Below are positions 717-30,132 of a stretch of 34,898 nucleotides of DNA, piece by piece (within the stretch, counting starts at the first letter, position 1; each line of letters starts with the position of its first letter). Below the pieces are notes generated by a model, which worked only from the letters and a program-made list of their open reading frames with translations, had not been told where the DNA came from and searched no databases. Origin of the DNA: an uncultured Anaerolineae bacterium (GTDB lineage Bacteria; Chloroflexota; Anaerolineae; S140-20); contig CAZSJU010000004.1 of NCBI GenBank assembly GCA_964607235.1, forward strand, positions 1 through 34,898, read 5' to 3'. The translations under genes were made by a program, and so were the position numbers.

Positions 717-2504
717 CTATCCTTCGACGTTCAAGTCCTTCAGGATGCGCACGGCCAAGCGGGCTACTTCACGGGCCGTTTCCTTGGCGCCAGGGATGGA
801 GCAGGTGATCTTGGCGGATTTTTCCGCCTTCTTGCCGGCATCCTTCCAGCTATACTTGCCCATCGCCGCAGCGACCACAGCAGGCACGACCGCGTCGATG
901 GTGCAGCAACCCACGTACATCAGTTCCTGGGCCACCGCCGCTGCCACGGTGATCGGCAGAGACAGTTCGGACTTTTTGTTAATGACGGCGTCGGGGATCA
1001 CCTTGTGGCTTAGTCCCTCGAACACAAACTCTTGCCCGTCAATCGTCACCACGGCGTCGATATCCGCGTCAAAGCCCCAGAAGGATTGGGCAAAGGGATG
1101 CTCGCGGCGCGCGCCGCCTTCCAGCTTGGTGAAATGGACGCCGATCTCTTTGCCAAAGAAAAAGCTCAGGATCTTGCCCGCGTTTTCTTCTACCCTGGCC
1201 TTGCGCGCCTGGTCTAGCGCCTGGCAGATATCTTTCAGGTCCTTGCCCGCGCTGAGGGCGTCATAAGCGTACCGGGCGCGGGCATAGAGTGCGTTGGCCC
1301 GGATGCCGTCGGTAGCCTTGATGATGCTCTCGCTGACCGGGCCACGGCGGATTTGTTCCGCCTTGCGGGCGACCGTGTTGGTCGAAAAGGCTGCCACCTC
1401 GGGGTCAATCCACTGTGTGAGCTTGACTTCCCGGACAATGTCGGCCACAGCTTCGACGTCGCCTTTGTGGTCGATCAACGCGTTCATGGCGATGACACAG
1501 TCGGCCGCCAGGTGGGCCAATGGCGGATTGACGGGGCCGCCGCCAAATCCGGCGCCGATCATCGGGCTTTCCATAAAGGCCGCCAGCATCTCGTTCACGG
1601 TCATCATGCCGATGACCGAAGGCGCACCGACGTCCTTGAGGATCATCCCCATGCCGCCGATAAAAGAGGCGGTATCATATTCTTTGCCCGTGCCGCGCAA
1701 GTGCAGCTTTTCGGGCAGCCCGGCAGCCTCGGCGGCGCCTTTGCCGGCCAGGTAGCCAGTGCCCTGGGTAAAGAATTCGCCATACTCGGCGCCGATCATC
1801 CCGTCAGGGTTGATGACCTCTAACACTGCGGCAGCGGCGAGCATCGCGCACTGGATAGGGCTGGGCGAGATGCCGGCGCCACGATAAGCCTTCATCATTG
1901 ACTCTACCGCGACTTTTGTGCCTTTGGTGCACAGGTCGATATAGACCATATCCTCACCCAGCACACTGTGGCCCATCGGCGCGCCACCCGCGACAAAGGC
2001 AGGCACGTCTGCGCCATCGATGCGGACCACCTCGCCCTTCATCATGGCATCGTAGAGCCCCTGGACGGCAGCAAAGCCGGACAACTTGTTGGTCAATTTT
2101 GAGGTGGGTATGGCTGTCACACCTGCACGGCCAACACCGGCCTTCATACGCGCCATGGCGCCCAACTTGCGGTTGCCGGCGGGGACGCCCGCCCGAGAAG
2201 CCGAGCCGGCAATAAGCAGCAGCGTGGCGGTGATGAGCGCCGCGTTCGCCGGAAAGGCACCCGCTTCCATCGCGGCTTTGACGCCCACTTCTACCACGTG
2301 GTCCAGCGGCAATTTTTCAAGGTTCGCGTCGGTCAACGAGATATCGCGACCCTGCAAGATCTCCCACGTCATCGCGTTGGCGGCGCTTATCGCTGCCAGG
2401 TTCAACATGCCGTGTCCCTTGGTCAGGGCCTCGATCCGGTCGCTGGTGCTATACTCGACGTTTGAAGCCATTGCCATAAGAGTGGCTACAATCTCTTGTT
2501 CCAT
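717..2504 (-). CDS. conserved-looking protein of unknown function, 595 aa, Gly/Ala-rich
   Basis: Long ORF. I prefer the ATG at 2504 because GGAGGTG (2517->2511) sits 6 nt upstream; the track start at 2519 is a TTG. I could not recognise any family signature. Notable strings are [20 protein letters not shown] and YVGCCTID. Confidence 0.85.
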
Positions 2505-2771
2505 TGTCAACACCTCCAAGTGTTTTTGATCAGGCTTTCAGAGCCTTGAGATTCTTGAACGCTTGTCAAACAGATTAGAATGTGTAGGCTATAGTTTTGT
2601 GTTTGGGTATCACCTCCACTGCGCATTGATTGAGCAATCTGAGCGTCTGGACGCTGACTTGCGGCAACTCGGCTGTGTTGGGATAGATGTCAGATTAGGC
2701 CAAGGACGCACAAATTCATATCGGGTGAGAAAAATAACACAAATTTGAAAAAGGGGGAAAACAAACTAAAC

Positions 2772-2918: not shown

Positions 2919-3665
2919 CTAATCTGTAACGATATGGGCGATATGGTGCAGTTTGCGCAGCAGAGAGAGCCGTTCTTGTCCGATGTTGGCCAACGTTTCC
3001 CCGGTGCGTTCGAGCAGGTGTGTCAGTTGTTCAGCACGTTCCGCGCTGAGCGAGCGCACAGAGAGCAGCGCGGCACGCAACTGCCCCGAGTTGAACCCAC
3101 AAGCTGCTTCCAGCGCGTCGACTCTGGCGCCGACCGTTTCCCGGTCGGCATCTATCACGATTTGGCCGGCAAAGATCATCGCGACGAATTGTTTTTCCAA
3201 TTCTATGCGGCCCCGGGCGTACAACAGCCCGGCGTGGCACTGGTGTAGTTGGGGCACGGGTTTTTCCTGATGGGCCAGGGTCCGCCAAGAATCGACGCAG
3301 CGTCGATGTCCCTCAGAGTTGCCCAAGACGAGGTCGCAAAACGCGCACGAGTTGCAAGGTGGACCTAGAGGCTGTCCATCCAAACGGGTCAACACAGAAC
3401 CGACGCCCATCGCCTCGGCAAAGATCGCTTGTGCCGACTTGACGCTTTCAAGGGAAAGCGTCTCGGTAGAAGGCTGCTCGGTTGGGCAGCAAGTTTGTGG
3501 CCGTTGTGTTCCAAGCCAGGCTATAATCTCTGGTTTTGAGAAGCGCCATTGTCCGCCTACCTTAAAGCCCGGCAACCGGCCCTCTTTTAGCATATGATAG
3601 AGGGTAGTGCGGTCGACCCGCAAGAACTCTTCGAGTTCGCGGGTGGTCATTAATTCATTCGACAT
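2919..3665 (-). CDS. transcriptional regulator, excisionase/MerR-type HTH fused to a PocR sensory domain
   Basis: The N-terminus TTRELEEFLRVDRTTLYHMLKEGRLPGFKVGGQWRF is an excisionase-family HTH. The C-terminal part has the PocR pattern (CxxCAFC .. C .. QCHAGLLYARGRI..FVAMIFAGQ). The ATG at 3665 has GGAGA 6 nt upstream. The alternative ATG at 3680 would be leaderless. Confidence 0.8.
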   Translation of the reverse strand: MSNELMTTRELEEFLRVDRTTLYHMLKEGRLPGFKVGGQWRFSKPEIIAWLGTQRPQTCCPTEQPSTETLSLESVKSAQAIFAEAMGVGSVLTRLDGQPLGPPCNSCAFCDLVLGNSEGHRRCVDSWRTLAHQEKPVPQLHQCHAGLLYARGRIELEKQFVAMIFAGQIVIDADRETVGARVDALEAACGFNSGQLRAALLSVRSLSAERAEQLTHLLERTGETLANIGQERLSLLRKLHHIAHIVTD

Positions 3666-3685
3666 GACAAATCTCCTCATTGTTC

Positions 3686-3784: not shown

Positions 3785-3816
3785 CCATATCAAGGTTGAT
3801 CAAGGAGGGAAAAAAG

Positions 3817-4854
3817 ATGAAACTAGGCTTGGCAGTTTTGGGTTTTGGTAATGTAGGAAGAGCTTTTGCTCGATTGTTGCTGCGCAAGGCTCCCGCATTG
3901 GCCTCCGATTATGATTTACAGTTATCGGTGACGGGGATCATGACCGCGCGCCACGGCAGCGCCATTGACGCAACCGGCATTGATCTGCAACAGGCGCTAG
4001 CGTTGGCGGCGTCCGGCGCCCCATTGGACGTGCTGTCCACCACTCCACCGCCGGACGATAGCTTGTTATTCTTGCACGCGTGCCCGGCGGATGTCTTGAT
4101 AGAGCTGACGCCCATTAATTTAAAAGACGGCGAACCGGCCGTCAGCCACGTGCGGATGGCGTTGGAAAAAGGGATGCATGTCGTCAGCGCCAACAAGGGA
4201 CCATTGGCCTTTGCCTGCCACGAGTTGCGTGACCTGGCCGCGTCACAAGGTCGCGGGTTTTTGTTCGAAGCCACAGTGATGGATGGTGCACCGGTCCTGG
4301 GCGTGGCGCGGGTGGGACTACCTGCAGCGCGGGTGCTGGGCTTTCGCGGTGTGTTCAACAGCACCACCAATTATATCTTGACCCAGATGGAGACCGGCGT
4401 GTCTTTTGACGAGGCCGTGCGTGCGGCTCAGGCGATGGGCATTGCCGAGACTGACCCTAGCGCCGATGTCGACGGATGGGATGCGACGGTCAAGACGGTG
4501 GTACTGGCCAATGTGCTGCTGGGCGCTGACCTGCGCCCGATCGACGTCGACCGCACCGGCATCCGTGACCTGACGCCGGCGGATTTGCAAGCGGCGTGTG
4601 AACGGGGGGAGCGCATCAAGCTGCTTTGCCAGGCTGAGCGCGAGGGCTCAAGCGGCGGCTGCGTGGCCCGCGTCGCTCCCATGCCTGTGCCGATTTCGGA
4701 CCCGCTGGCCAGCCTGGGCGGCACGTCCAGCATGATCACGCTAGAGACGGACACGCTCAAGCAACTCAGCCTGATCGAGTTTGAGCCACAACCCGCCCAG
4801 ACCGCCTATGGTTTGTTGGCCGACTTGGTCAACCTGGCCCGTGGCTGGTACTGA
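3817..4854 (+). CDS. hom: homoserine dehydrogenase (short form, no ACT domain)
   Basis: 345 aa from the ATG at 3817, with AGGAGG at 3804-3809. Motifs: GFGNVGRAF (NAD fold), VVSANKGPLA, FEATVMDGAPV, NSTTNYIL, and AETDPSADVDGWDATVK (catalytic D/K region). Confidence 0.8.
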   Translation: MKLGLAVLGFGNVGRAFARLLLRKAPALASDYDLQLSVTGIMTARHGSAIDATGIDLQQALALAASGAPLDVLSTTPPPDDSLLFLHACPADVLIELTPINLKDGEPAVSHVRMALEKGMHVVSANKGPLAFACHELRDLAASQGRGFLFEATVMDGAPVLGVARVGLPAARVLGFRGVFNSTTNYILTQMETGVSFDEAVRAAQAMGIAETDPSADVDGWDATVKTVVLANVLLGADLRPIDVDRTGIRDLTPADLQAACERGERIKLLCQAEREGSSGGCVARVAPMPVPISDPLASLGGTSSMITLETDTLKQLSLIEFEPQPAQTAYGLLADLVNLARGWY

Positions 4855-4863
4855 ACGGCGGGA

Positions 4864-6981
4864 TCAGGGCATCTCTTCCAGGCGATAAAAATAGTGCGCC
4901 GCTTCAGTGGTGACGGGCGCCAGACCGGAAACCAGCAACACCGCATGGTCAGCCTCGGCCAGCGCGAGGGGCCAATGGGCGGTCTGGTCCGTGCGCAAGG
5001 GTAGTCTTTGCACCGTTGTCTCGGCGCCAAAGGTAATGAGCTGCACCAGGTGTCCCTGCGGCACATAGTTGTTGATCCGCACAAAACCCTCGGCATGCCA
5101 ACCGTGCTCGTCCTGCTCTACGTCATCCAGGTAGTCGAGTTCGAGAATAGCGACGTCATCAATCGCCCAACCCGGGTTGTTCAGCGCGTCGTCCGTGACG
5201 TACTCAAAGCGTACCTGTAGCTGCTGACCTGCGTACGCGCTCAAATCAATCTGCTCCTCAATCCAGGTAGGGCCGCCGCCACTATAGCCTGTGTAGCCCC
5301 AGCCAAAGTTGTTGCCGTTAGGGTTACTGTCGGTGGTTGAAGGACCGCTCAGGATCTGCCAGGTGGCCCCGTCGTTGTTAGAGACCTGCACATAGCCATA
5401 GTCCCAGTCGCTCTCAATGTCATACCACGTCCAAAAGCTCAGCGTGGCTTGATTCAGGTCACTCAGGTCAAAGGTCTGCGTCAGTCGCATGTTACTGTCG
5501 TCACCCCGGTTAGCGTACCAGAAATAGTCACCACTGTAGGCCTGCGTATCGACCAGGCGCGCCCGCGTGTTACCGTAAAAGTCCAAAGTGAGGTCGCGCC
5601 CGCCCGCCAGGTAAATATAGTCCACGCCATACTGGGAGACGTCGGTCATCCGCTCAATCGGATAATCATTATGCTGGGCATCCAGCCTGGGTTGTGGTGT
5701 GTCTATTTGCTCGTAACCAAACTGCCCATCCGCCAGTTCAGGGGCATCCAGATACGAGGCGACCACCCAATCTGCAAAGACGTCTGTGAACGTCAACCCG
5801 GTGCCGCTTTCAGCCAGCACCGCGTCAATGCTGGCGATGCCGTTGGCCGGATGTCTCACCACGGCCTGGGTCATCGTCTCGCCAAAACGATCCATCAAAT
5901 AGGTCGCGAACAGAAAAGAGGCCCCGTAATGGGCCGAGCGGGAACTGTCGTCGGACCAGGTGTTGAGCTGTGTGTCGGGCCGCTGCGCCCAGGCGTACTC
6001 GCTGCCCCCCGGATCAAAACCATTAATCAGCGAGGCCAGCTCTGACATGGCTTCATTCAGCCAGGTCTCCTCGTTGCGATCCTGGTGCCAGTGAATCATG
6101 TGCTGGAACTCGTGGGCCAGGGTGCCCAGGTAAAAGTCAGAGCCCACGCTGGCATTGTCCGCATTGATGTAAAACATCTCCGTCTGGTTCGAGTCAGGGC
6201 GCACCTCAGCCGTGTACTGGTCGGCGCTCCAGTAATAGCCCGCCACACCTGAGCCGATCTGCCGGGCGTGTAACACGCTCAGGTGCGGGTCACCGTCTAT
6301 ACCTGGGGTGTTCTCGCTGCCGAAAAAGGCGCGGTTGGTGGGGTAAATGTCCCGCTCAAAGGTCTCGGCGGCCTGCGCCAACCGGTCTTGATTGATGTTG
6401 ACGCCGCGTTCGACCCACATGTATAGATGCTCGGTCTTGTAAAGCAACTCTGCTTCGACCAGCAGGATCTCTTGATTGTCGTCGTCATGCACTCTAAAAG
6501 TGCGGAGCGTGCCAACCGGATAATCGGGCGAGACGTCGCCGATGGTCTCCGGCACGTCGGGGCGCACGCCGCGTAGGCGTATGGCCAGGCTGCGCAGATC
6601 CCGCACCGGCACCTCGTGGGTGGCCAGTGACATGGCGCTGTACAAATCGTCTGCCGAGACGGGCTGGCGCATTAACGTCACATCTTGGGGAAGCGGCGGC
6701 GGCGCCTGTACCGTTTCCTGGGGCGTTTCCACAGTGGGCGAAGCGCTGGGTTCGGCGTTGTTCTGAAGGCCCGACTTGTCAGACGGCGATTCGCTCGTAG
6801 GGGGAGCCGGTGACGGTGACGGCGTCGGGGTCAGTGTTGGCGACCTTGGTGTGACGCTTGGCATCGCCACGGTCAGGGTGACCGTAGGCGTTGGCGCCTC
6901 TTCTTGCAATCGTGCAGTCAGGGCACAGCCCAGCAGCGCAAAGGTGAATAGAATGGACAGAAAAAACTTTTGTTTTGACAT
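4864..6981 (-). CDS. secreted lipoprotein zinc metallopeptidase (HExxH..E gluzincin) with InhA/MAM-like C-terminal beta domain
   Basis: I start at the ATG at 6981 (MSKQKFFLSILFTFALLGC), giving a signal peptide plus LLGC lipobox, followed by a Pro/Thr/Ser-rich linker. Other motifs: HEFQHMIHW..NEAMSE, and a C-terminal WQIL..DLSAYAGQQLQVRFEYVTDD..GWAIDDV pattern. Confidence 0.7.
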   Translation of the reverse strand: MSKQKFFLSILFTFALLGCALTARLQEEAPTPTVTLTVAMPSVTPRSPTLTPTPSPSPAPPTSESPSDKSGLQNNAEPSASPTVETPQETVQAPPPLPQDVTLMRQPVSADDLYSAMSLATHEVPVRDLRSLAIRLRGVRPDVPETIGDVSPDYPVGTLRTFRVHDDDNQEILLVEAELLYKTEHLYMWVERGVNINQDRLAQAAETFERDIYPTNRAFFGSENTPGIDGDPHLSVLHARQIGSGVAGYYWSADQYTAEVRPDSNQTEMFYINADNASVGSDFYLGTLAHEFQHMIHWHQDRNEETWLNEAMSELASLINGFDPGGSEYAWAQRPDTQLNTWSDDSSRSAHYGASFLFATYLMDRFGETMTQAVVRHPANGIASIDAVLAESGTGLTFTDVFADWVVASYLDAPELADGQFGYEQIDTPQPRLDAQHNDYPIERMTDVSQYGVDYIYLAGGRDLTLDFYGNTRARLVDTQAYSGDYFWYANRGDDSNMRLTQTFDLSDLNQATLSFWTWYDIESDWDYGYVQVSNNDGATWQILSGPSTTDSNPNGNNFGWGYTGYSGGGPTWIEEQIDLSAYAGQQLQVRFEYVTDDALNNPGWAIDDVAILELDYLDDVEQDEHGWHAEGFVRINNYVPQGHLVQLITFGAETTVQRLPLRTDQTAHWPLALAEADHAVLLVSGLAPVTTEAAHYFYRLEEMP

Positions 6982-7016
6982 GGTCTGACTCGCTTGTGGT
7001 ATACAGATTTTAAAAG

Positions 7017-7045
7017 ATGATAGCACACTTGAGGGAGAGGGTCAA
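7017..7045 (-). promoter_or_regulatory. sigma70-type promoter (extended -10) for the metallopeptidase gene
   Basis: Minus strand TTGACC (7045->7040), 17 nt ending in TGc, TATCAT (7022->7017). Confidence 0.5.
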
Positions 7046-7060
7046 CAAGGTGTGGAAATT

Positions 7061-7099
7061 ACAAACAAAAAGGGGCGTTATCAGCATGACAACGCCCCT
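7061..7099 (-). terminator. Rho-independent terminator after tRNA-Sec
   Basis: On the minus strand: AGGGGCGTT (7099->7091), an 11-nt loop, AACGCCCCT (7079->7071), then TTTTGTTTGT (7070->7061). It starts 8 nt after the tRNA 3' end. Confidence 0.7.
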
Positions 7100-7106
7100 G
7101 GACGTT

Positions 7107-7205
7107 TGGCGGGAGTGGATGGGAGTCGAACCCACCAGAGCTGGTTCTGCACCACCTCTCAGCGGTTTTGAAGACCGTGGAGCCCACCAGGACTCAACCA
7201 CCCCC
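7107..7205 (-). tRNA. selC: tRNA-Sec (anticodon UCA), CCA encoded
   Basis: The 99-nt minus-strand sequence is GGGGGTGG-TT-GAGTCC-TGGT-GGGCTC-CACGGT-CTTCAAA-ACCGcTG-AGAGGTGGT-GCAGA-ACCAGCTCT-G-GTGGG-TTCGACT-CCCAT-CCACTCCC-G-CCA. It has an 8-bp acceptor stem plus a 5-bp T stem (the bacterial 8/5 Sec fold). It also has a 6-bp D stem with a 4-nt loop, a 6-bp anticodon stem, a U33-UCA-A37 loop, a 9-bp extra arm and discriminator G73. Confidence 0.9.
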
Positions 7206-7215
7206 CTATGCCTTT

Positions 7216-7244
7216 AGGATACTCGGATTAGGCCTATTCGTCAA
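7216..7244 (-). promoter_or_regulatory. sigma70-type promoter for tRNA-Sec
   Basis: Minus strand TTGACG (7244->7239), 17 nt, TATCCT (7221->7216). The -10 ends 10 nt before the mature tRNA 5' end. Confidence 0.55.
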
Positions 7245-7275
7245 GTCGTTTGTTTTTGCATCCTCGCGGGCGCAA

Positions 7276-8490
7276 CTAGTCAAGGGTTATGCCACAGATG
7301 GATACCCAGGACGTGCCATTCTGATCGGCCGGACAACGGTCGTAACCGGCACGGTTACCCGTGGTGCCGTCTAACAGGCGCAAGGTCAAGTAGATCGGCG
7401 CCAGGCCGCAGACGTTGCGACGGTCCTCCTCATCGGCGATGCGTTGGTAAAATGTTTGGGCATCCCCGGCGCAAATGGTTTCAATGAGGGCATCATCGGC
7501 GGCAGCCAGGCGAGCGCGGCCCGTCAGGTCGACCGGCTGCGGGTCTCCAAAGGCGGGACCGACGTGCGCCAGGTCGCCGGCGGCGACGACAAGGGCGGTA
7601 CGTCCTTCCAGGGCATTGTGCAGCGCTTGCAGTGCCCGTGTAAAGGTTGGGTCGCTGACCGGCTCATAAGGAGTGTGCATAAAATGGTGAAAAGAGCCGC
7701 ACAAGATGGGCACCAGCTCGATTTTGTCGGCCGGTTGGCGCCTGCGAACGTGGTGTAGCCACACTGCTGCTAATTCGATGGAATGCTCGCTGACGTGGTG
7801 CAGCTCTTCGGCAAAGGCAAACTCTGGCCCGACCGCTTTGGCTATGGCGTCCACGACGTCGGTGGCGGTAGGCAGAACGCCATAGGGTGTGGCATAATGC
7901 TGGCGGGTCAATGTCAGTGTCCCTTGTCCCCCATTGTGGTCGGTGCCCAGGATCACGGCGACGTCGGCGGCCCGTGCGACGTCGGCGGCGTCTCGCCACA
8001 CCTGTGCGTAAACCGGTCCGCCCCGCTCATAGTCGATGTGCGGGCTGACCAGCCCGCGTCCGTCAAAGCGTTTCGCGGGCTCGGACAAATTGTCGATATA
8101 GCCGTCCAGCATCGCGGCCAATGCGTCAGGGTCGGCTGGATAGCTGGCGCCGGCTGAAGTCGGTGACCGGTGTGGCGCCTGATGATAGTCAGTTAGAGCA
8201 GTGTCACACGCCTCCTCAAAGCGCTCGTTGTGCAATAGCAGCGCGCGGTCTAGTTGCTCAATGACGTGGGTCATCTCGCTTTTACTAAGGCTCAGGCCGG
8301 CACGCACCGTCAATGACGCGCGTAGGGCATCCAGGTCTCGGGTACCGTCCAGTAGGAGCAGCATCGGCGCCATTTGTTGCGAGATGATGACTACGCGCTC
8401 GGTCAGATGGAGCGGATCACGCAGCAACAGGGCCGGCTGCCCGTTATGCAGCATCGGATAAGTATGGATAGGTCGCAGCTTGAGATTCAT
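7276..8490 (-). CDS. Memo-like protein (AmmeMemoRadiSam system protein B family) with ~110-aa N-terminal extension
   Basis: 404 aa, with AGGAG 10 nt upstream of the ATG at 8490. Memo/extradiol-type motifs: VSPHIDYERGGPVYA, ILGTDHNG, VSEHSIELAAVWL, AAGDLAHVG, NVCGLAPI. Confidence 0.75.
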   Translation of the reverse strand: MNLKLRPIHTYPMLHNGQPALLLRDPLHLTERVVIISQQMAPMLLLLDGTRDLDALRASLTVRAGLSLSKSEMTHVIEQLDRALLLHNERFEEACDTALTDYHQAPHRSPTSAGASYPADPDALAAMLDGYIDNLSEPAKRFDGRGLVSPHIDYERGGPVYAQVWRDAADVARAADVAVILGTDHNGGQGTLTLTRQHYATPYGVLPTATDVVDAIAKAVGPEFAFAEELHHVSEHSIELAAVWLHHVRRRQPADKIELVPILCGSFHHFMHTPYEPVSDPTFTRALQALHNALEGRTALVVAAGDLAHVGPAFGDPQPVDLTGRARLAAADDALIETICAGDAQTFYQRIADEEDRRNVCGLAPIYLTLRLLDGTTGNRAGYDRCPADQNGTSWVSICGITLD

Positions 8491-8519
8491 CGCTAATCAT
8501 CTCCTGACTAGATGACCCG

Positions 8520-8549
8520 ATTGTACAATAGCTTGAGGAGTTTGTCTAA
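8520..8549 (-). promoter_or_regulatory. possible promoter for the Memo-like gene
   Basis: Minus strand TTAGAC (8549->8544), 18 nt, TACAAT (8525->8520). This match is weaker than the others. Confidence 0.35.
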
Positions 8550-8572
8550 CGCGTCCTACTCTTGGGGTAACA

Positions 8573-8950
8573 TCAATAAACGCCCAGCTCACGCAGCCGG
8601 TCCTCATCCAGGCCAAAGTGGTGGCCCAGCTCGTGGATGACGACCATGCGTACGCGGGCTTGGACCTCTTGGGGTGTGCGGCAGGCGGCCAGGATGGGGC
8701 GACGGAAAAGTGTGATTTTGTCTGGCAGCACCATACCATAGCCGTGGCTGCGGCGGGTCCGTGGCACCCCTTCGTAAAGACCCATCAACGTGGTGTGAGG
8801 AGCAAGCCCCAGCCGCCGACGTTGCGCGGCGGATGGCGCCTCGTCCACGGTGACATCGACGTTGTCCATCTTGGTATGCACCCACGCGGGCAGCGTTTGC
8901 AGGGCTTGTACCACCAATTGCTCGAACGTGTCTCGATCTATATCTAACAT
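8573..8950 (-). CDS. small zincin-like metallopeptidase-family protein (DUF1025-like)
   Basis: 125 aa from the ATG at 8950, with AAGGTG 6 nt upstream. It has a C-terminal VIHELGHHFGLDE motif. The track start at 8956 (GTG) lies only 2 nt after the end of the upstream gene's stop codon (8961-8963); the preferred ATG at 8950 lies 10 nt downstream of it. Confidence 0.7.
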   Translation of the reverse strand: MLDIDRDTFEQLVVQALQTLPAWVHTKMDNVDVTVDEAPSAAQRRRLGLAPHTTLMGLYEGVPRTRRSHGYGMVLPDKITLFRRPILAACRTPQEVQARVRMVVIHELGHHFGLDEDRLRELGVY

Positions 8951-8960
8951 GAGCACACCT

Positions 8961-11900
8961 TCAAGGCTGCAGCGTGATGCGGGTGATGAGGATCACCCTG
9001 GTGCTCCCGTCATCCAGGACCAGGCGTTGCTGCGTGTCCGGGTCATACAGCCCCGCGATCAAGGCATATGAGCCCGGTGTCCCCTCGGCCGGGATGTCTA
9101 GGACGCGCGTGTCCAGGATGACTTCACCGGGCGCCCAGCCGGTGGTGGGGCGCGTCCAATCGGCAGGCTCTCCGTCCGACTGGGTCAGTAAACTGCCATC
9201 AGGCTTGAGCAGATGCAAAAAGACGCGGTAGCTGGTATGCATCTCGACCTGACCTTGCCAGGCCAGGGTCACCGTGAGCGTGACGGGCGCTTGCAGCGGC
9301 GTGGTGACGGTCGGTTGCAAGTTAGCGCCGAGCAGCGTCACACAGTCGTCTTTTTTGCCTTCTGGGAACGGTTCGTCCCCTGAGACCACGTGGGAGCAGG
9401 TGAGCGTGGCGTCCAGAGGCAACTGCAAGTCAGGCGGTTGCCAGCGTCGCGCCGGTGCCTGGACCTGGAGTTGACCTAGGGTGGCCTGGGGGGTGAAGGT
9501 CTGCTGGGTGACCGGGTCAAAAAGTTCCAGCCCCCAGGTATAGGTGCCGCTTGCCAGGGAGGCGGGCAAGCGTAAAGCGTGCTGCCCACGCCATAGATCG
9601 CCGGCTTGCCATTGTGAGGTGGACCAGTCGCTATGCACTAGCAAGTCCCGGGCATGGACGGTGTGGTCCTGTTGATCTTGCAGCGTCAGTCTAGCCTGCA
9701 GATCAGGTATCCGGTTGGTGTCGAGCTTGTGCCAGAAGAGGGTAACCAGCATGGGGTCGCCAGGAGCAGCTTGGGCGCGGTCTAGGTTGGCGCCAAGCAG
9801 GGTCAAGGGACCCATATCGACGTCCAGGTCATATTGCATCGTGACCGCGTCCGGGTCAAGCGCGTAGGAAGGGCGGGTCAGCGTGACTTGACCCACAACC
9901 AGGTTGGGGCCAGCGATTTGGCCAGACTCGTCAAACACGTCAAGTGGCGCTAGCGTCTCGCGATCAAAGGCAGTGAGCAGCAGATTGTAACGACCAGGCG
10001 GTGTCCCGGACAGCGGTTCGATGTCGAGTCCCTGTACCGCGTAACGCCCGTTGCCCCATGCCGAGCTAGGAGGAAGATCCGCGTAACCACGGCGGGGAAA
10101 GGCTGACTTGTCGCTCCAAAGCTGCCCATCGGGGCCTTGCAGCACCACGGTGGCTTTGTAGCTGCGAGTGGGACGGACATAGGCGCTCCAATAAAAAGCC
10201 AGGTGCAACGTCCCATCGCTGGGCATGTGCGCGGTGCTACGATCATAGCCCAGCAAGCGGACGCCGTCCTTAAAACGGACGTCTAGCGGCACGTCCACGT
10301 CAGCCAGTGTGCTGTCCGCTTGCAGGCCGGAATGGCGTAAAGGTGTGTCCGTGCGGTCAACCACAAACACCTTGAACGCCAACAACATTAACGCCAAAAG
10401 CGCTAGCGTGGCAATGTGCGCCCAGTTAAGTTGTGTGATAAAGCGATGCGTGGTCTGAGAGCGGTTCGGTGATGTGGCTTGGATACGGTCGGCGAAATAA
10501 TCCCTCACGCTAATGTAGGTGACAAAGGCAACGCTGGCCAGTGCCAGTATGGAGAGCATCGTGGCCCCAGCCCGAATTGGCGTGCTGCCCCAATCAATCT
10601 CCACCGTGTGGCGACCGGCCGACAGGTCAAAGGTAATCAACCCTTCGGGCGTGCTGGGGATGATCTCGACGGGGCGGCCGTCGACACGAACCTGCCAGCC
10701 CGCAAAGGCGAACGTCAGGTAACGGGCACGGGTGGCTTGGGGCGTCTCGATCTCTAGTTTAGCATAGTTGGGCGCATATCTGGCCCAGTGAATCGTCGTT
10801 CCATCGGGCAACGACTCGGTGTCAAAGCGAGCGATAGTGATTTCTCCATCGTCACTAGCAGAGTCCAGGGCAGCGGCATATTGGGCCTCCAACGGCGAGT
10901 CGATAGGACGAGCCTGTACAGTCACTGGGAAATAGCTACCCTCAGGATCCACACCCACCAAGCGACTAAGATGTTCGTAGGCAAAAAGATCGAGAATGTT
11001 AGGCTGGGGTTTAGTAGGACAGTAGCCAGTAGGTGGATAGGTGAACGGCAAAGCCGTGACGATCAATAATGTCACGCTTAAGACTAACAACAAGGATAGG
11101 GGCAGCTTGTGCCCACCCCATCCCAATGAGAGTAAAGCGGTGACAAAGGCGCCAGCGAGAAGTGATAGCGGCAGCACCGCGCGACCGACAAAGCGCCAGG
11201 GGAACTGCACAAAGGCAACCAAGGGCAGATTCTCCCACAGCGGGAGCGAAGCACGTGTGGCCATGAATACCATGATAACCGCGGAAAGGACCAGGAAAAC
11301 GACCGTGACCCAACGTTCACGGCTTGCGGCGTCCGGCTGGAAGGTGTCCTTCCGGGGGCGCCAGCACCATAGCCCTCCTATGCTTCCCAACAAAGCCAGC
11401 AGCGCCAGTGGCAGGCCGACCGGCAGCTGCAACGGCGGATTCAAAAGAGCCGAATCAACAGGCTCGGGGGGCGCAAATACCTCAGAGAGGTTGACAAAAT
11501 TGTAGTGAAAGTCATTGTTGCGCGTCATGCGCGACAAATGCAGTTGCACATAGTCCTTCTCTAGCACGGCTGGCGCCCAGAAAAAGGCGGTCAGTCCCAG
11601 GCTTAGCATCAGGGCGACGCCTGCGGTTACCAGGTGACCGCGCCGTCCTCGAGCCCACCACAAGGCCAACAAGTAAGCGACCAGGAAAGGTGTGAACAGC
11701 AAGCTAGAGATGTTGTGGGTCAAGTACAGCAGGGCCAATGACCCGACGCTGCTCAACAGATAGCGCGCCTGACCACCCAAGAGCAAGCGACGAAAGGCCC
11801 ACAAAATAAAAGGAAATAATGCCAGCGCCACCGATTCGGGCATATTGCCACGCACCAGGGCATCGATGAAAGTATAAGGCGCATAAACATAGGCCACAGC

Positions 11901-12287
11901 CGCGACGAGACCGGCCCATCTTCCGAACAGGTCGCGTCCCAACAGATAGACCCCGATCGCCGAAGCGAGCATCGCCAATACATAAACCAGGTTGAGGGCC
12001 AGCGGCAAAGGCAGGCCTATCAGGTGCAGCGCCAGCCCCAGGTAGTAAGAAAAGGCAGCCCGATAATTAAAAAAAGGATAGCCGTAACCAAACGCCAAGT
12101 CTGGGACCCAACGGGAGCCAAGTAACCCATCCTGCAGGGCATAGCGCATGGCCACGATGCGAAAGTAGTGCAATCCACCATCGTGTGTGCAGGGCGGATC
12201 GTCACGCAGCAAAGGGATGACGGCAGTAATCATCAGCAAGACGAGCACACCCAGCAACCCGATTTCTTTGGCCTGTTGTGACTTCAT
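8961..12287 (-). CDS. large polytopic membrane protein, GT-C-fold glycosyltransferase-like (COG5617-like N-terminus) with three C-terminal beta-module repeats
   Basis: 1108 aa. The N-terminal ~600 aa contain many hydrophobic helices (..HDGGLHYFR.., YGYPFFNYRAAFSYYL). The C-terminal ~450 aa hold three ~120-aa modules ending in the pattern PPGxYxLxLxxFD/YDP. Confidence 0.7.
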   Translation of the reverse strand: MKSQQAKEIGLLGVLVLLMITAVIPLLRDDPPCTHDGGLHYFRIVAMRYALQDGLLGSRWVPDLAFGYGYPFFNYRAAFSYYLGLALHLIGLPLPLALNLVYVLAMLASAIGVYLLGRDLFGRWAGLVAAVAYVYAPYTFIDALVRGNMPESVALALFPFILWAFRRLLLGGQARYLLSSVGSLALLYLTHNISSLLFTPFLVAYLLALWWARGRRGHLVTAGVALMLSLGLTAFFWAPAVLEKDYVQLHLSRMTRNNDFHYNFVNLSEVFAPPEPVDSALLNPPLQLPVGLPLALLALLGSIGGLWCWRPRKDTFQPDAASRERWVTVVFLVLSAVIMVFMATRASLPLWENLPLVAFVQFPWRFVGRAVLPLSLLAGAFVTALLSLGWGGHKLPLSLLLVLSVTLLIVTALPFTYPPTGYCPTKPQPNILDLFAYEHLSRLVGVDPEGSYFPVTVQARPIDSPLEAQYAAALDSASDDGEITIARFDTESLPDGTTIHWARYAPNYAKLEIETPQATRARYLTFAFAGWQVRVDGRPVEIIPSTPEGLITFDLSAGRHTVEIDWGSTPIRAGATMLSILALASVAFVTYISVRDYFADRIQATSPNRSQTTHRFITQLNWAHIATLALLALMLLAFKVFVVDRTDTPLRHSGLQADSTLADVDVPLDVRFKDGVRLLGYDRSTAHMPSDGTLHLAFYWSAYVRPTRSYKATVVLQGPDGQLWSDKSAFPRRGYADLPPSSAWGNGRYAVQGLDIEPLSGTPPGRYNLLLTAFDRETLAPLDVFDESGQIAGPNLVVGQVTLTRPSYALDPDAVTMQYDLDVDMGPLTLLGANLDRAQAAPGDPMLVTLFWHKLDTNRIPDLQARLTLQDQQDHTVHARDLLVHSDWSTSQWQAGDLWRGQHALRLPASLASGTYTWGLELFDPVTQQTFTPQATLGQLQVQAPARRWQPPDLQLPLDATLTCSHVVSGDEPFPEGKKDDCVTLLGANLQPTVTTPLQAPVTLTVTLAWQGQVEMHTSYRVFLHLLKPDGSLLTQSDGEPADWTRPTTGWAPGEVILDTRVLDIPAEGTPGSYALIAGLYDPDTQQRLVLDDGSTRVILITRITLQP

Positions 12288-12335
12288 AATGCGTTATCTC
12301 ACTCTTTCTTTTGCCCTGCAAGAAAAGGCTGGCGT

Positions 12336-12364
12336 ATTATAGCACGGTCAGCCCTCAGGTGCCA
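12336..12364 (-). promoter_or_regulatory. extended -10 promoter for the 1108-aa gene
   Basis: Minus strand TGcTATAAT (-10 at 12341->12336) with a weak -35 TGGCAC (12364->12359). Confidence 0.4.
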
Positions 12365-12498
12365 GAGCCGGTTTGCGATGTCTGCTCTACAATGCCAGCT
12401 TTCAAGCGGCTGACATCTCGACCGGTCATTTCCCTGATGGAGGAGAAATTGGACAAGCTTGTTCCGCCTACGCCGAGAGAACACAACGCCGCTGATTA

Positions 12499-14499
12499 TT
12501 AACGCAACAGCACGGGTCCCACAACCTTCAGATCGCCGGCTGGGTTACCGGCAGCATCTAGCACCGGCACGTTGACGATATCGGGAAAAGTGTACATTCC
12601 CAGGTGTATCCAGTACTGGCCCTGCGGTGCGTCGGCGTTTGTCTCAATAGAAAAGCGGGTCAGCACCAGGTCGCCGGTCTGCCATGCTGCGCTGTCCAGG
12701 CCCGCCATATCGTGTTGTCCCCAGCGTTTTCCTTCCGCGTCTACCAGATGCACAAAGAGGTGATAGTCGATGCCAGTCGGCGCTGGTCCGTCCAGCCACC
12801 AGGCCACCGAAAACTGGAGCGGTTGATGAGATTGCGCGTCGTCAATGCCGTAGGCGAGCCATTCGACACCGTTGGCCAGCCGGCGCGGTGCGGACAGCGG
12901 CGTCAGCCCTGCCAACACATCATCGCGGCTCGCATTGTCGCGCTGGAATAGCCAGTAACGAGTGTTCCCTGGCGCCGCTATGGGGTCCAGTGCGGTGGTG
13001 CCCGACAGTGCGCGCAACTGCACGGTGGCTGTTTGCACGTCGGGCGTGGTGATGTAAACTGCCGGTCCGAGGGGAAAGACCAATGCTTCGCGGCCGTCTA
13101 TCAGGCGGTGAGGCAGGTGCCGAGGCAGCAACACGTCCAAAGCGGCCGGTCGGTTATCCCACAGCGGGTCGTCCCCTTGAGCCACGAGCAGGATCTCGGC
13201 GCCACACGCTTGCGCAGCCGCTCCGGCGGCCTGGGCCGTTTGCCATAGTGGCCCGACCGTCGGACCATAGCCGTTGGGTGTGTCGTGCTGGGTCACAAAC
13301 CGGTTGAACGCCCGGTTCAGGTAGATTTGCCATCCCCCAATCAAGAGCAACAATCCCACCACGCTGATCATGCCATAGCGGCCCCAGCGTGGGCCATAAC
13401 GTTTCTGGAGCTGGGCGAGCCCGTCGCTCAACAGCAGGGCGATGATCAGATGTTGGACCGGATAGAGCAAGATGAAATAGTGTGGGTAAACCGGTTGGGT
13501 GTGACGGGTTTGGAGCGCTACTGGCACGAGCAGCCACAGCAACAGTACCAGGTTGCGTCCCAATGACGCCGGACGGGGTCGGTCTTTTTCTTGCGCCTGG
13601 CGCACGATGCGCGCGATCAAATAGATCACGCCTAGACCCAGCAACGCCATCTCGACCCCGTCGAGCCAGCGTAGAGGCGGCAGCGTGTCCAGGAACTGCG
13701 CATAGCGGGTGCCGGCCAGGTCTTGGTAATGATAGCCGCTGCTCAGCCAGACTGCAAAACGCGTCGCTTGCCAGTCAATCTGGGCAGGGCCACCTCCCAG
13801 ATCGAGAAACCCGCGCAGGTTGGCCCAACCGTGGGTCCCGGCGTCGTGGTAGAGATAGGGCGCAGCGCACAGCACCAAGACCGCTACGCTGACCAGCAGC
13901 GGTCGACGTTGTAGCTGCGCGCGGAAGGGCAGCAAGATCAACACCAGGATGATCAAAAAAACCAGTCCTCCCAGATGAGTGCCGACGAGGGCGACCAACG
14001 CCAGGCTGGCGCCCAGCAACGCCCAGGGCCGGCGCTCCACGATCAGCAAGAGTAAGAAAAAGATGAAAAGCGTCGTGGCCAACGGCCAGTTCTGAGTCCA
14101 CATCTTGCGCGCGTAATAGATCGCCCAGGGATTGACGGCCAGCAGCGCGGCAGCGATAAAGCCGACCCGGCGACTGAAAAAGCGGGCGCCCAGCACAAGC
14201 GTCATGCCTACCCCGGCTGTGTGGATCAAGGCAATGACCGCGATGGCCAGCCGGGGATCTGGGGTCAGTGCTAGGGGCAACGCCATCAAGTAGACTTGCA
14301 GCGGCGGATGGGCCGGCCCTTGCGAGGATTGGGGGCCTATGATGGGGAAATGGCCCTGGCGGACCAGTGCTAACGCCTGGCGCGTGATGCCGGCCTCGTC
14401 GGCTTTGAATTCGGCCAGGTCCAACTGCGTCAGGCGCAGGGCCGCGGCCAGCAGCAAGAGCAGCATTAGAGATAACCAGCGAGATTTTTGGGTTGTCAT
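12499..14499 (-). CDS. ArnT/PMT-like (GT39/GT83-type) membrane glycosyltransferase with one C-terminal beta module
   Basis: 666 aa. It has a first-loop DE motif (FKADEAGITRQAL), then ~11 hydrophobic helices and one C-terminal module (..YHLFVHLVDAEGKRWGQHD..APQGQYWIHLGMY..). The start overlaps the upstream stop as ATGA (14496-14499). Confidence 0.75.
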   Translation of the reverse strand: MTTQKSRWLSLMLLLLLAAALRLTQLDLAEFKADEAGITRQALALVRQGHFPIIGPQSSQGPAHPPLQVYLMALPLALTPDPRLAIAVIALIHTAGVGMTLVLGARFFSRRVGFIAAALLAVNPWAIYYARKMWTQNWPLATTLFIFFLLLLIVERRPWALLGASLALVALVGTHLGGLVFLIILVLILLPFRAQLQRRPLLVSVAVLVLCAAPYLYHDAGTHGWANLRGFLDLGGGPAQIDWQATRFAVWLSSGYHYQDLAGTRYAQFLDTLPPLRWLDGVEMALLGLGVIYLIARIVRQAQEKDRPRPASLGRNLVLLLWLLVPVALQTRHTQPVYPHYFILLYPVQHLIIALLLSDGLAQLQKRYGPRWGRYGMISVVGLLLLIGGWQIYLNRAFNRFVTQHDTPNGYGPTVGPLWQTAQAAGAAAQACGAEILLVAQGDDPLWDNRPAALDVLLPRHLPHRLIDGREALVFPLGPAVYITTPDVQTATVQLRALSGTTALDPIAAPGNTRYWLFQRDNASRDDVLAGLTPLSAPRRLANGVEWLAYGIDDAQSHQPLQFSVAWWLDGPAPTGIDYHLFVHLVDAEGKRWGQHDMAGLDSAAWQTGDLVLTRFSIETNADAPQGQYWIHLGMYTFPDIVNVPVLDAAGNPAGDLKVVGPVLLR

Positions 14500-17400
14500 G
14501 GGATATTGACCTCAATCGGCAGAAGGATCTGGTCGTTGGGCAATATGTTCCCCGCCGCGTCATAGACCGGCAGGCGCGCGCCGCTGAGCGGATCATATAG
14601 GCCCACGGCGACGTGGTAAGCGCCGGGAGGCGCGTCGTCCAGGACCGGCAAGGCCAATTCGTCAATGATGACCTGACCGGGCGCCCAGCTATGGGTCGGG
14701 GCTGCGCCGTTGGCCGGAGGGCGGTCCACCTGACCATAAATAGTATCGCGAGTGCCGGGGCCGCGCAAGTGGACAAAGACGATATAGCTCAGGTCGGTGG
14801 GACCGTTCGCTTGCCAATACAGCGTCAATGGGATCTGTTGGCCACCCTTTACTTCTAGCGCACCCGGGTGCTTTAGCGCAGCGTTCGGGAGATCAAAGCC
14901 GCGCAGTTGCACTTGTTGACCCAATCTAAGGTCCAGCGGGTAGGCAATACCCGCTGGCAGGCTAAAAAGCCGGTCACGGGCCAGGACTGTGAGCCTGGTC
15001 AGGACATAGTTGTCGGCCCACAGGGGCGTGCCGTCTGCATCTAGCACATTGAGCCGCAAATCATAGAGGCCGGCCGGTAAATCGGGCGGGATGGGCAAGT
15101 CATAACGCACCTGCTCCAGTTCCCCGTCACGCCATTGGCCCGTCGCATAGGGGCTCAAGGGGAGGGTTTGCCCCACTATGGGGCTGCCGGCAGGGGCGTC
15201 TGGGACCAACAACTGCCAGCGCAAGGCATAGTCAGTGTCGGGAGCGGTCGTGGCTTGCCAGAACAAGTCAAAGGACACCACGTCCCCCGAGGGCACTTGC
15301 GCCGGTGGCGGGTGCTGTCCCAGTAATCTCAGCGGGCCGGCCGCGCGGGGTGGGTCGATCCGCTGTGTCATATCTACCTCGCCCGGTGTGGGCGGACGTT
15401 CGGGGGCGGCGATGGTGACATGGCCCAAGTCCAGGCTCAAACCGGCAAACCTGCCGACCGTGTCCCAGGCACTCAGCCCCTTACCGCTGTCCGGATCAAA
15501 TGCGCCAAGTGCGACGCGATACTGGCCCGGCGGGATAGCTGGGGGCAAGGATAATTTAAAAGTCTGGTCGCTCCATTCGTTCGGCCTCCAGGCTGAGGGA
15601 TGTCGATAGTCAGCGTCCAATATCTCTTGCCCACCTTCTAGCCAGGTGCGCCCTGTCGCATCCCGCAAATGCAAGACTGCACGATAATCGCCGGAGAGAG
15701 GGGCTAACGCCGACCAGCGGACGACAACCGGCAGATCGTCAGGCCAGGACAACGGCACGCTGGGAAGCACGGTGCCGACGAGGCTCAATCGCTCCCCAAA
15801 TCGGGCTTTGGAGGGCGTCAGACGTGCTATACAATTACTCGGGTCGGTTGATGCCTCTGGAATGATCTGATAAAAAGTGGCACCAGCGATGAAAGCGACC
15901 TCGTGCAGTTCGCCGTAGCACGCGAGCGCTTGTTGCAAGTGTTGCATAGTGACCGGCGAAGCGGCGGATAGAGCGACGTACCATATATGTCCGGACTCGG
16001 TTTGTAGGGCGTGCAGACGCTCGGCGACCTGGGCCGCATTGCGGGCATCGGCCAGAGAGACTAGCGTGGCCGGGCCATTGTATGTACGAGTCAACGCCGC
16101 TTGTGTGTCAAGCAAGACCACGTCCTCCCGCGCGGCGTGCTCGCTCAGATAGGCCGCTTGTGCCAAGGGTGCTGGGTTGCGATAGAGCCGGGCGTAAATG
16201 ATCCCGGCGATCCGTTTTTCATAGACCAGCGTCGCATCGCCCTCCCCTTGGGGCCAATGCGTGCCTTGTTGCGGAGGGTGCAGGAAATAGTCGGCCTGGG
16301 AGAGGGTTGCTGTTGACAAGGGCACCGTTTGCCCGACGAATAGCGAGGCCAGCGGTGGGATTGAAGGGCTGGCGACGATTAACTGTTCGGCGTTGGGTTG
16401 CTCGTTTAACCAACGAGCCGCAGCGCCCGACCCTTCGCCCCATCCAACCGGCAACCATTCCAGGGCTGTCCGTGGCCCGCCCAACAAGGGATTAAAAAAA
16501 GCCAGCGGCGTGAACAGATAGGGCAAGAGGATCCCGATTTGGAAAAGGGCTACAAGAGCGCTGGAGAAACGATACAGTCTTTTCCCTCTGTCCCCTAGCC
16601 ATTCACTTATGCCTTGCCAACCCAATGCGGCGACCAGGGTTAGCGCTGGAAAGACGGGCAGCAGATAACGGTCGTGTTTCTTGCCGACCAGGGTGAGGCA
16701 CAGGCCGAACCCCAGTGCCCAACCGGTGAGCGCGAGGGCCCACTTGTCCTCACTTGTTCTCACTTGCCCTCGCTTGCCCTCCCTGCCAGAGGCGTGTCGG
16801 CGTGGGCTGCGGCGGCGCAGATGGCGCCACAGGCCGGCGAGCCAACCGAGCAGCACCCAGGGTGAGGCGCGCAGGAGCCCCACCACCGGGTAAAAGCCCG
16901 CGCCAGGTGTAAAGGTGTCCTGGCCGTGAAAGAAAATGGGCCGCAGCGCGCCCTCCACGTGCCGCTCCCCGACATCCAATAGCCCGCGCAAGGTGGACAG
17001 CGGCGCTGTCCACATGGCGGGGTAAAAGGCCAGGAAGGCCAGCCCGGCTGTCACTCCCCACAAGGTCAAGGCGATGAGGGCCTGATGCCACGTGAGGCGA
17101 CGCGTGAGCGCGGCGGACAAGAGCATGATGCCGGCAAAAGGCGCCAGCAGGCCGCCGGGCGTCTTGGTGAGCGCGGCCAGACCGGCCAGCAGACCTGACA
17201 AGGCGGCCCAGCGATAAGGGGCGGGTTGGGCGGGGCGGACGGTGAGCAATAGCGTCAGGATTGACAAGGTCGTCGCCGTGGCCAGCAGGCCGTCCACGTG
17301 CAACAGACCGCTATGGCCGATCAAAAAAGGGTCCAGGGCCAGTAAAAGGGCCGCCAACCAGGCGGTTTTGCGCCCCCACAATCGCGCGCTCAGGGCAAAG

Positions 17401-17813
17401 GCGCCGGCGACGCCCAAGCTCGTGACCACGGCGACCAGGACACGCCCCGCCGGCAAAAAGAAAGCCAGGGGGCCAAAGGCGGCGGCGTTTTGGGGAGAGA
17501 GGCCGGCCAGTCCGTCCAACCAGTTCAAATGGGCTGCGGCGGTGTCGGGGTCCAGCCAGCAGTGAATCTGTACCCCCAGGCTGCCCAGCCACATCGTCGT
17601 CACACCCGGGTGACCCGTGGCCGGCAATGCACTCAGATCACCCGCTGCCAACGCCTGGCGAAAGTGGATCGAACGTTGCACCCACGCTGGTTCGTCCGGT
17701 GTCACATAGCGGCCGCCGGGCGCCAGGCGTAACAACAGCGCCAGGGCAAAGATCAGCGCCAGGGACAGGTCATACAAGTTTTGCGACTCTATGGCTGTGG
17801 CTTTGTGCTGCAT
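14496..17813 (-). CDS. ArnT/PMT-like (GT39/GT83-type) membrane glycosyltransferase with three C-terminal beta modules
   Basis: 1105 aa from the ATG at 17813, with AGGAG at 17829->17825; the track start at 17825 is a GTG. It has a first-loop DE motif (YVTPDEPAWVQRS), a polytopic N-terminal half and three C-terminal ~120-aa modules. Confidence 0.75.
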   Translation of the reverse strand: MQHKATAIESQNLYDLSLALIFALALLLRLAPGGRYVTPDEPAWVQRSIHFRQALAAGDLSALPATGHPGVTTMWLGSLGVQIHCWLDPDTAAAHLNWLDGLAGLSPQNAAAFGPLAFFLPAGRVLVAVVTSLGVAGAFALSARLWGRKTAWLAALLLALDPFLIGHSGLLHVDGLLATATTLSILTLLLTVRPAQPAPYRWAALSGLLAGLAALTKTPGGLLAPFAGIMLLSAALTRRLTWHQALIALTLWGVTAGLAFLAFYPAMWTAPLSTLRGLLDVGERHVEGALRPIFFHGQDTFTPGAGFYPVVGLLRASPWVLLGWLAGLWRHLRRRSPRRHASGREGKRGQVRTSEDKWALALTGWALGFGLCLTLVGKKHDRYLLPVFPALTLVAALGWQGISEWLGDRGKRLYRFSSALVALFQIGILLPYLFTPLAFFNPLLGGPRTALEWLPVGWGEGSGAAARWLNEQPNAEQLIVASPSIPPLASLFVGQTVPLSTATLSQADYFLHPPQQGTHWPQGEGDATLVYEKRIAGIIYARLYRNPAPLAQAAYLSEHAAREDVVLLDTQAALTRTYNGPATLVSLADARNAAQVAERLHALQTESGHIWYVALSAASPVTMQHLQQALACYGELHEVAFIAGATFYQIIPEASTDPSNCIARLTPSKARFGERLSLVGTVLPSVPLSWPDDLPVVVRWSALAPLSGDYRAVLHLRDATGRTWLEGGQEILDADYRHPSAWRPNEWSDQTFKLSLPPAIPPGQYRVALGAFDPDSGKGLSAWDTVGRFAGLSLDLGHVTIAAPERPPTPGEVDMTQRIDPPRAAGPLRLLGQHPPPAQVPSGDVVSFDLFWQATTAPDTDYALRWQLLVPDAPAGSPIVGQTLPLSPYATGQWRDGELEQVRYDLPIPPDLPAGLYDLRLNVLDADGTPLWADNYVLTRLTVLARDRLFSLPAGIAYPLDLRLGQQVQLRGFDLPNAALKHPGALEVKGGQQIPLTLYWQANGPTDLSYIVFVHLRGPGTRDTIYGQVDRPPANGAAPTHSWAPGQVIIDELALPVLDDAPPGAYHVAVGLYDPLSGARLPVYDAAGNILPNDQILLPIEVNIP
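16741..16780. repeat. four tandem imperfect 10-mers inside the 1105-aa CDS
   Basis: CACTTGTCCT CACTTGTTCT CACTTGCCCT CGCTTGCCCT, exactly head to tail. The period is not a multiple of 3. It encodes ..GREGKRGQVRTSEDK.. in a loop region. Confidence 0.8.
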
Positions 17814-17860
17814 ACAGCGTCTCACTCCTGGGGAAGGCCTGGGTGATTCCAGGCGCGGGG

Positions 17861-17948: not shown

Positions 17949-18082
17949 TGTAAGCAGCAAGTGCTTTTTGTGGGGACTCGGAGTTGAAACGTGGTGCGAC
18001 GCCGTTTCGTCTTGATGAGGCCGCTTGCGTTGCGGGTGTAAAAAACGGTCTCTTGGAGGGCCAGTGGGATACGGGAGGAGAC

Positions 18083-29697: not shown

Positions 29698-30132
29698 ATG
29701 AGTAGCAGGCAAAACCGTATGAACCAGCGAAACTCTGGCCATTTGGCCATACATCGGCGCTCGGATGAGGTGACGTTTCTCAAGCAGCGCTTGCGTGACC
29801 TGGAAGAGATGCTGCAGGACGAGCAAGCACAAGGGGAGCAGACAGCGACCTGGCGGCGGGAACGTGACCTGGCCGATGAATTGCTCCACACGCGCCACAC
29901 CGAACCGCTGGGTGAGACCTTGCAGCGCCGATTGGCGATGGCCGAGCTTGTTTGTCGCGACCTGACGACCATCCAGCGTAAAGGCGCTGAATCGCTCGTC
30001 GCGCCTTTGGGCCGGCCGTCGACGCCGGTTTCAACGCGGGCGAGCCGGCGAAATTATGGGATAGCAGAGACCGAGCGCCGAGCCCTGGCCGACATGCTCC
30101 AACAATGGTGGGCCTGGCTGCGCAGACTGTAG
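29698..30132 (+). CDS. hypothetical protein, 144 aa, Arg/Glu-rich predicted coiled coil
   Basis: The start is 1 nt after the upstream stop (TGAcATG), so it is translationally coupled. It contains a heptad-like LKQRLRDLEEMLQDEQAQ. No family recognised. Confidence 0.55.
   Translation: MSSRQNRMNQRNSGHLAIHRRSDEVTFLKQRLRDLEEMLQDEQAQGEQTATWRRERDLADELLHTRHTEPLGETLQRRLAMAELVCRDLTTIQRKGAESLVAPLGRPSTPVSTRASRRNYGIAETERRALADMLQQWWAWLRRL

Follow-up and report, generated by a model that had tools for sequence, protein, structure and literature searches.

Bacteria incorporate selenocysteine (Sec) at UGA by an established pathway. tRNA-Sec is serylated by SerRS and converted by SelA, with selenophosphate supplied by SelD, and the charged tRNA is delivered to UGA by SelB. 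The tRNA gene, selC, is also a known hotspot for island integration in enterobacteria.

The window analyzed in this study, 34,898 nucleotides long, is an entire contig (C4) of a MAG with 448 contigs, 3.66 Mb and 59% GC, from an uncultured Chloroflexota bacterium of the Anaerolineae type. Among named loci, the nearest came from Chloroflexia and Anaerolineae MAGs. The MAG is 86.8% complete with 3.5% contamination. The closest described system to its tRNA gene is the bacterial tRNA-Sec of the 8/5 type (selC, RF01852), as in E. coli and Aquifex aeolicus. The window tRNA shares with it the UCA anticodon, the 13-bp 8/5 branch, the 6-bp D stem with a 4-nt loop, the long extra arm, G73, a length of about 95–99 nt, the single copy, and selA, selB, and selD alongside. 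Nothing categorical differs between the two; the window copy carries an A28/C44 mismatch (or a bulged C) and an encoded CCA.

Related variants were described by Mukai et al. 2016 (PMC5389517): a minor 8/4 form of tRNA-Sec that occurs in some Actinobacteria and Chloroflexi, SelC* tRNA-Cys with U73, and allo-tRNAs with 8/4 or 9/3 branches. The window tRNA shares with these the long V-arm, the extended acceptor, and the tetraloop D-arm, and some of them were reported from Chloroflexi. FdhA, HdrA, FrhD/MvhD, and Prx-like thiol:disulfide oxidoreductase are prokaryotic selenoprotein families (Zhang et al. 2006, PMC1794560). N-terminal NifS-SelD fusions were found in only two bacterial instances by Mariotti et al. 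2015 (PMC4561486), and all such fusions had SelD-Cys except the Sec-containing one of Geobacter sp. FRC-32.

The features found are listed in Table 1. The locus is almost certainly a canonical selC in a genome that decodes some UGA codons as Sec, with selC most likely forming a stand-alone unit.

Table 1. Location of selC, its predicted signals and neighbors, and genes on other contigs. Positions without a contig name refer to the window.
Feature	Location	Strand	Evidence
selC, tRNA-Sec, anticodon UCA, 99 nt including G73 and encoded CCA	7107..7205	(-)	ARAGORN, Rfam RF01852, fold, covariation
Predicted sigma-70-type promoter, TTGACG-N17-TATCCT	7216..7244	(-)	Consensus scan, conservation in relatives
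Predicted intrinsic terminator: hairpin 7099..7071 and T-rich tail	7061..7099	(-)	Consensus scan
Memo-like / AmmeMemoRadiSam system protein B gene, upstream neighbor	7276..8490	(-)	Pfam PF01875, TIGR04336
InhA-like MAM-domain metalloprotease gene, downstream neighbor	4864..7026	(-)	Pfam PF20773
Predicted promoter of the InhA-like gene, TTGACC-N17-TATCAT	7045..7017		Consensus scan
Three consecutive membrane proteins (1108/666/1109 aa) with PMT_2, PMT or PTPS-related glycosyltransferase-like domains	8961-17825	(-)	
Predicted HdrA2-like selenoprotein, 840 aa, C-terminal MvhD/FlpD fusion	C70:5014-7536 (L014)	(-)	
Third HdrA-like gene	C71:4519-5373 (L059)		
selD (NifS-SelD fusion)	C52 (L010:33-2252)	(+)	NCBIfam, Pfam

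Identity and structure of the selC tRNA

ARAGORN identified a single tRNA in the 34.9-kb window, tRNA-SeC (tca), with the anticodon at tRNA position 35. The only Rfam match in the window was a full-length match to RF01852 at 7111-7205 (-), with 70.8 bits against a gathering threshold of 47 (E 9.5e-13). The first-pass annotation had described a 99-nt tRNA with anticodon UCA and had named tRNA predictors as the check. ARAGORN and Rfam both bore this out, returning tRNA-Sec and not a type-II tRNA-Ser/Leu. That annotation gave no strand for its claims; the selC unit, the promoter, the terminator, and the surrounding array are all on the minus strand.

The Sec hallmarks that had been listed (8-bp acceptor, 5-bp T stem, 6-bp D stem with 4-nt loop, long extra arm, and G73) were all present in the minimum free energy (MFE) fold of the 99 nt. 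In this fold, the acceptor stem was followed by a 2-nt linker and the D stem; the anticodon stem closed the loop CUUCAAA, and the extra arm had 8 bp with one internal mismatch. The T stem consisted of G-U, U-A, G-C, G-C, and G-C, with no 51a bulge. The acceptor/T branch was 13 bp with an 8/5 split, followed by the discriminator G73 and the encoded CCA.

The conservation of this structure was investigated in 40 related genomes searched with RF01852. Of these, 32 contained a tRNA-Sec scoring at least 63 bits. Thirty loci were fetched, and ARAGORN called tRNA-SeC(tca) in every one of them. The window's cloverleaf was scored on an alignment of 31 sequences (the window and 30 orthologues), with 500 shuffles and with the 3' partners slid by 1–3 columns as controls. 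Standard pairs occupied 97.7% of the alignment cells, and both-sided (compensatory) changes were found in 19 of the 33 pairs. No shuffle was as good as the observed alignment (0/500), and pairing fell to 47–53% in the slid controls. The acceptor helix was 98.8% paired, with three pairs changed on both sides. The T helix and the D stem were both 100% paired, the latter with both-sided changes in five of its six pairs, and covariation was seen in all eight pairs of the extra arm. The same cloverleaf was predicted independently by RNAalifold. G73 and the anticodon loop were invariant in all 31 sequences.

At the base of the anticodon stem, pair 28:44 was A/C in 4 of the 31 genes (the window, G028, G002, and G040) and G-U or C-G in the remaining ones. 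The MFE fold of the window tRNA gave a bulged C instead of the A28/C44 mismatch, and this position could be either an A+-C wobble or a bulged C. A full CCA was encoded in only three of the 31 aligned genes, the window's among them.

Two other identities were weighed. The gene might be taken for a wrongly called type-II tRNA (Ser or Leu), for an opal suppressor or for a pseudogene, since type-II tRNAs of this and related genomes cross-match RF01852 at 40–53 bits. However, the score of the window tRNA was well clear of these cross-matches, and its 8-bp acceptor and 6-bp D stem with a 4-nt loop are Sec-specific. Ser tRNAs (cga, gct, gga, and tga) and four Leu tRNAs were found separately in the assembly, and the orthologues covary. 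Such a mis-call is scarcely credible.

The other possibility is that the gene encodes a tRNA-Cys(UCA) of the SelC* type or an allo-tRNA, in which case UGA would be read as Cys or Ser. These look-alikes, with their long V-arms and tetraloop D-arms, match the tRNA-Sec covariance model well (PMC5389517). They are distinguished by U73 or by an 8/4 or 9/3 branch, whereas the window tRNA has the invariant G73 and the 8/5 branch. Unlike those variants, it has a five-pair T stem without the 51a bulge, which is the canonical form. It was also the only tRNA-Sec and the only UCA tRNA of an assembly with complete selA, selB, and selD, and a look-alike is therefore extremely improbable. The feature is a genuine canonical bacterial selC of the 8/5 type, and nothing contradicts this identification.

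Sec machinery and UGA-containing genes in the genome

The first-pass annotation had reasoned that a tRNA-Sec implies selA, selB, and selD. All three genes were present above their NCBIfam cut-offs, and their domain architecture was confirmed. selA was located on contig C207 (545 bits vs. a cut-off of 268), and its product contained the Pfam domains SelA and Se-cys_synth_N. selB was on C74 (353 bits vs. 242), and its product had the Pfam SelB beta-barrel and winged-helix domains. selD was on C52 (398 bits vs. 125) and encoded a 739-aa protein in which a NifS-like class-V aminotransferase (Aminotran_5) is fused to AIRS/AIRS_C SelD. The SelD active-site motif was GCACK, the Cys type. All three genes were on contigs other than that of selC, and none was within 7 kb 3' or 27 kb 5' of it.

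The SelD of this MAG has the same N-terminal class-V aminotransferase/NifS-like domain and Cys-type SelD as the fusions described in PMC4561486. The 2015 survey held two bacterial cases, whereas in a metagenome-scale search all 120 clusters among the matches listed (119 without the query's own) had this architecture, with 71–85% identity. The named clusters with the fusion were mostly Anaerolineae, Anaerolineales or Chloroflexi. Judging from these matches, the fusion, whose gene lies outside the window, is common in this lineage.

No selU/ybbB gene (selenouridine trait) was found in the genome of this MAG, which is 87% complete. This result agreed with the published absence of the trait in Chloroflexi (PMC1794560, PMC5322559). 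The window contig is linked to the contigs of the sel genes through the binning of a fragmented MAG, and binning error is a small caveat. The closest relatives of the tRNA, the promoter, and the flanking genes were all in the same class, which counts against such an error.

UGA-containing genes were searched for by a home-made scan for TGA codons that were in frame and flanked by coding potential, together with Pfam and NCBIfam searches and a genome search with PF00384. At least one UGA selenoprotein gene had been expected from the tRNA. At least four were predicted, all on contigs other than that of selC, each with a TGA in frame within a conserved domain and a hairpin after it. They encode FdhA, two HdrA-like proteins, and a Prx-like protein. 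In all four, the hairpin was within about 20 nt downstream of the TGA and had −16 to −25 kcal/mol; the selenoprotein and SECIS scans were home-made filters. The TGA was spanned by the matched domain in three of the four genes, and in the HdrA-like gene on C356 by a full-length NCBIfam HdrA2 match.

FdhA (C119, 900 aa) matched TIGR01591 with 856 bits against a cut-off of 666, and its U356 was in the motif CARL-U-HSVT. It fell below the first filter with a low upstream coding score and was recovered by the PF00384 search. The HdrA-MvhD protein on C70 had a single TGA, located in the HdrA part, with the U in MDCSI-U-ILAPK inside the FAD domain. The HdrA-like protein on C356 had the same U context (MDCSI-U-IL). 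The Prx-like protein (C319, 159 aa) was an AhpC/TSA SelL-related redoxin with the motif FN-U-PFC, and the Pfam domain spanned its TGA. A third HdrA-like gene, on C71, had the Sec context TLDCST-U-ILGPKM, and its frame broke after about codon 270. This break may reflect a frameshift, pseudogenization or an error of assembly. The four UGA genes were all within the families of PMC1794560; differing from these, one HdrA was fused to MvhD/FlpD with its single TGA in the HdrA part, MvhD/FrhD being itself a selenoprotein family. A tyrosine recombinase gene (PF00589, 35 bits) was also noted at C119:8917-9366 (-), about 200 nt downstream of the Sec-containing fdhA.

Of the 71 TGA read-through candidates that passed the first coding-potential filter, ten were taken to Pfam. 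Three of them were real (the two HdrA-like genes and the Prx-like gene), three had no Pfam match, and the remaining four were pairs of adjacent genes in the same frame. These pairs were an SMR/EamA-type transporter with PMT_2, HD with aconitase, Fer4 with an aldo/keto reductase, and Cas4 with Cas1. When the search was relaxed to redox motifs close to U, 13 candidates came up, including the HdrA-like gene on C71; the new ones on C189, C414, and C447 were dropped for lack of Pfam support. The absence of a TGA-split selenoprotein gene from the window, as noted in the first pass, held: its two same-frame TGA junctions were adjacent genes with differing Pfam domains.

The tRNA, the machinery genes, and the TGAs followed by hairpins in conserved domains were observed directly, and we infer from them that the tRNA is aminoacylated and that Sec is inserted. 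SerRS would charge the tRNA with serine. SelA would then turn Ser-tRNA-Sec into Sec-tRNA-Sec using selenophosphate made by SelD, here fused to a NifS-like desulfurase/selenocysteine lyase domain. SelB would bring Sec-tRNA-Sec to an in-frame UGA followed by a SECIS hairpin. The recoded UGAs would be those of the formate dehydrogenase alpha subunit, two (possibly three) HdrA-like flavoproteins, and the Prx-like redoxin.

Transcription and neighborhood of selC

A promoter of selC's own (TTGACG-N17-TATCCT) and a strong terminator had been claimed in the first pass, and both were recovered by the consensus scan. The annotated span, 7061-7244, runs from the T-run of the terminator to the -35 hexamer. 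The promoter matched the consensus at 9 of 12 positions, and 10 nt separated the end of its -10 hexamer from tRNA position 1. Three promoter-like sites were found in the surrounding 1 kb, compared with 0.4 expected. The same-family relative G002 had identical hexamers with the same 17-nt spacing. A promoter of at least 9/12 ending 4–20 nt upstream of tRNA-Sec was found in 17 of the 28 relatives with upstream sequence, which are not independent of one another and differ in their flanking genes. At control positions in the same loci, the frequency was 0.7% of about 10,000. Since the flanking genes of the relatives differ, the promoter travels with the tRNA.

The predicted terminator had a 13-bp stem (7 G-C) closing a 3-nt loop, followed by the tail TTTTTGTTTGT. 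Its core hairpin had −19.8 kcal/mol and started 8 nt past the CCA. A strict search found a terminator downstream of tRNA-Sec in only five relatives.

From the position of these signals, we infer that both are used and that selC is most likely transcribed on its own as a short unit. The sigma-70-type promoter about 10 nt upstream would start a short selC transcript, the short leader would be cut off by RNase P, and the transcript would end at the intrinsic terminator just past the encoded CCA.

Alternatively, selC could be mainly co-transcribed with the Memo-like gene and excised by RNase P and 3' processing, with the hexamers being incidental. The consensus scan detected no terminator between the tRNA and the stop codon of the Memo-like gene (7276), which are 70 nt apart. 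Read-through from that gene may therefore also contribute, and a 9/12 promoter is only a partial match to the consensus. This explanation is rather unlikely, given that the hexamers recur unchanged in G002 and that 17 of 28 relatives, with other upstream genes, have such a promoter at the same distance. Co-transcription and stand-alone transcription are not mutually exclusive.

A further suggestion can be made, which we regard as a long shot. The promoter directly before selC recurs in many Anaerolineae families whose neighboring genes differ, and this may reflect an independent supply or regulation of tRNA-Sec in the class, for example by selenium or anoxia. If true, stand-alone selC would be a lineage-specific control point for an FdhA/HdrA-centered selenoproteome.

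selC had been placed inside a long co-directional gene array, and this agreed with a minus-strand run at 4864-17825 (about 13 kb, 6–7 genes), with genes of the plus strand on either side (3796-4854 and 17984-20215). The run contained the InhA-like metalloprotease gene, selC, the Memo-like gene, one small ORF, and the genes of three large membrane proteins related to PMT_2/PTPS. The last three are upstream of selC and co-directional with it. The InhA-like gene has its own predicted promoter and probably starts at the in-frame ATG at 6981.

In a Chloroflexia MAG (L057, CAVPAL010000021), tRNA-Sec was at 2-99, an InhA-like homologue at 464-2164, and a Memo-like homologue at 4001-5206. The three genes were within 5 kb, and their order and orientation were unlike those of the window, indicating rearranged microsynteny. 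In the remaining 29 relatives, no shared neighbors were found within flanks of 1.5 kb, so the position of selC is not conserved.

As a known enterobacterial integration hotspot, selC could also have taken up a genomic island or prophage here. The first pass had seen neither an integrase nor a duplicated tRNA 3' end nearby, and the searches of the window came to the same result. No Pfam integrase was found among the window ORFs, and the PF00589 matches of the genome were all off this contig. The 27-nt tRNA 3' end was present once in the window, even allowing three mismatches. Both flanking genes had Chloroflexota homologues, which in one relative were within 5 kb of tRNA-Sec. An island inserted at selC was rejected for the window, and its probability is considered minimal.

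Other features of the window were also observed. Homoserine-dehydrogenase-domain paralogues were located at 3796-4854 (+) and 30142-31248 (+), within 27 kb; the second was preceded by two ORFs without a Pfam match (28623-29696 and 29698-30132). A 1182-aa signaling protein at 20892-24440 (-) combined an adenylate/guanylate cyclase domain with an AAA_16 ATPase and TPR repeats. A 600-aa ORF without a Pfam match, at 717-2519 (-), adjoined a PocR/HTH_17 regulator gene at 2919-3680.

Meaning of the Sec trait

The Sec trait is common and standard in this lineage. The machinery and the selenoprotein families are all known, so the trait is not novel, and knowledge of the Sec system is unchanged by these findings. 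Their value is mainly in annotation: without UGA recoding, the fdhA-, hdrA-, and prx-like genes will be split or truncated by gene callers. The selenoproteins found, namely formate dehydrogenase, HdrA/MvhD-type flavoproteins, and a redoxin, point to an anaerobic formate and electron-bifurcation metabolism and to a requirement for selenium.
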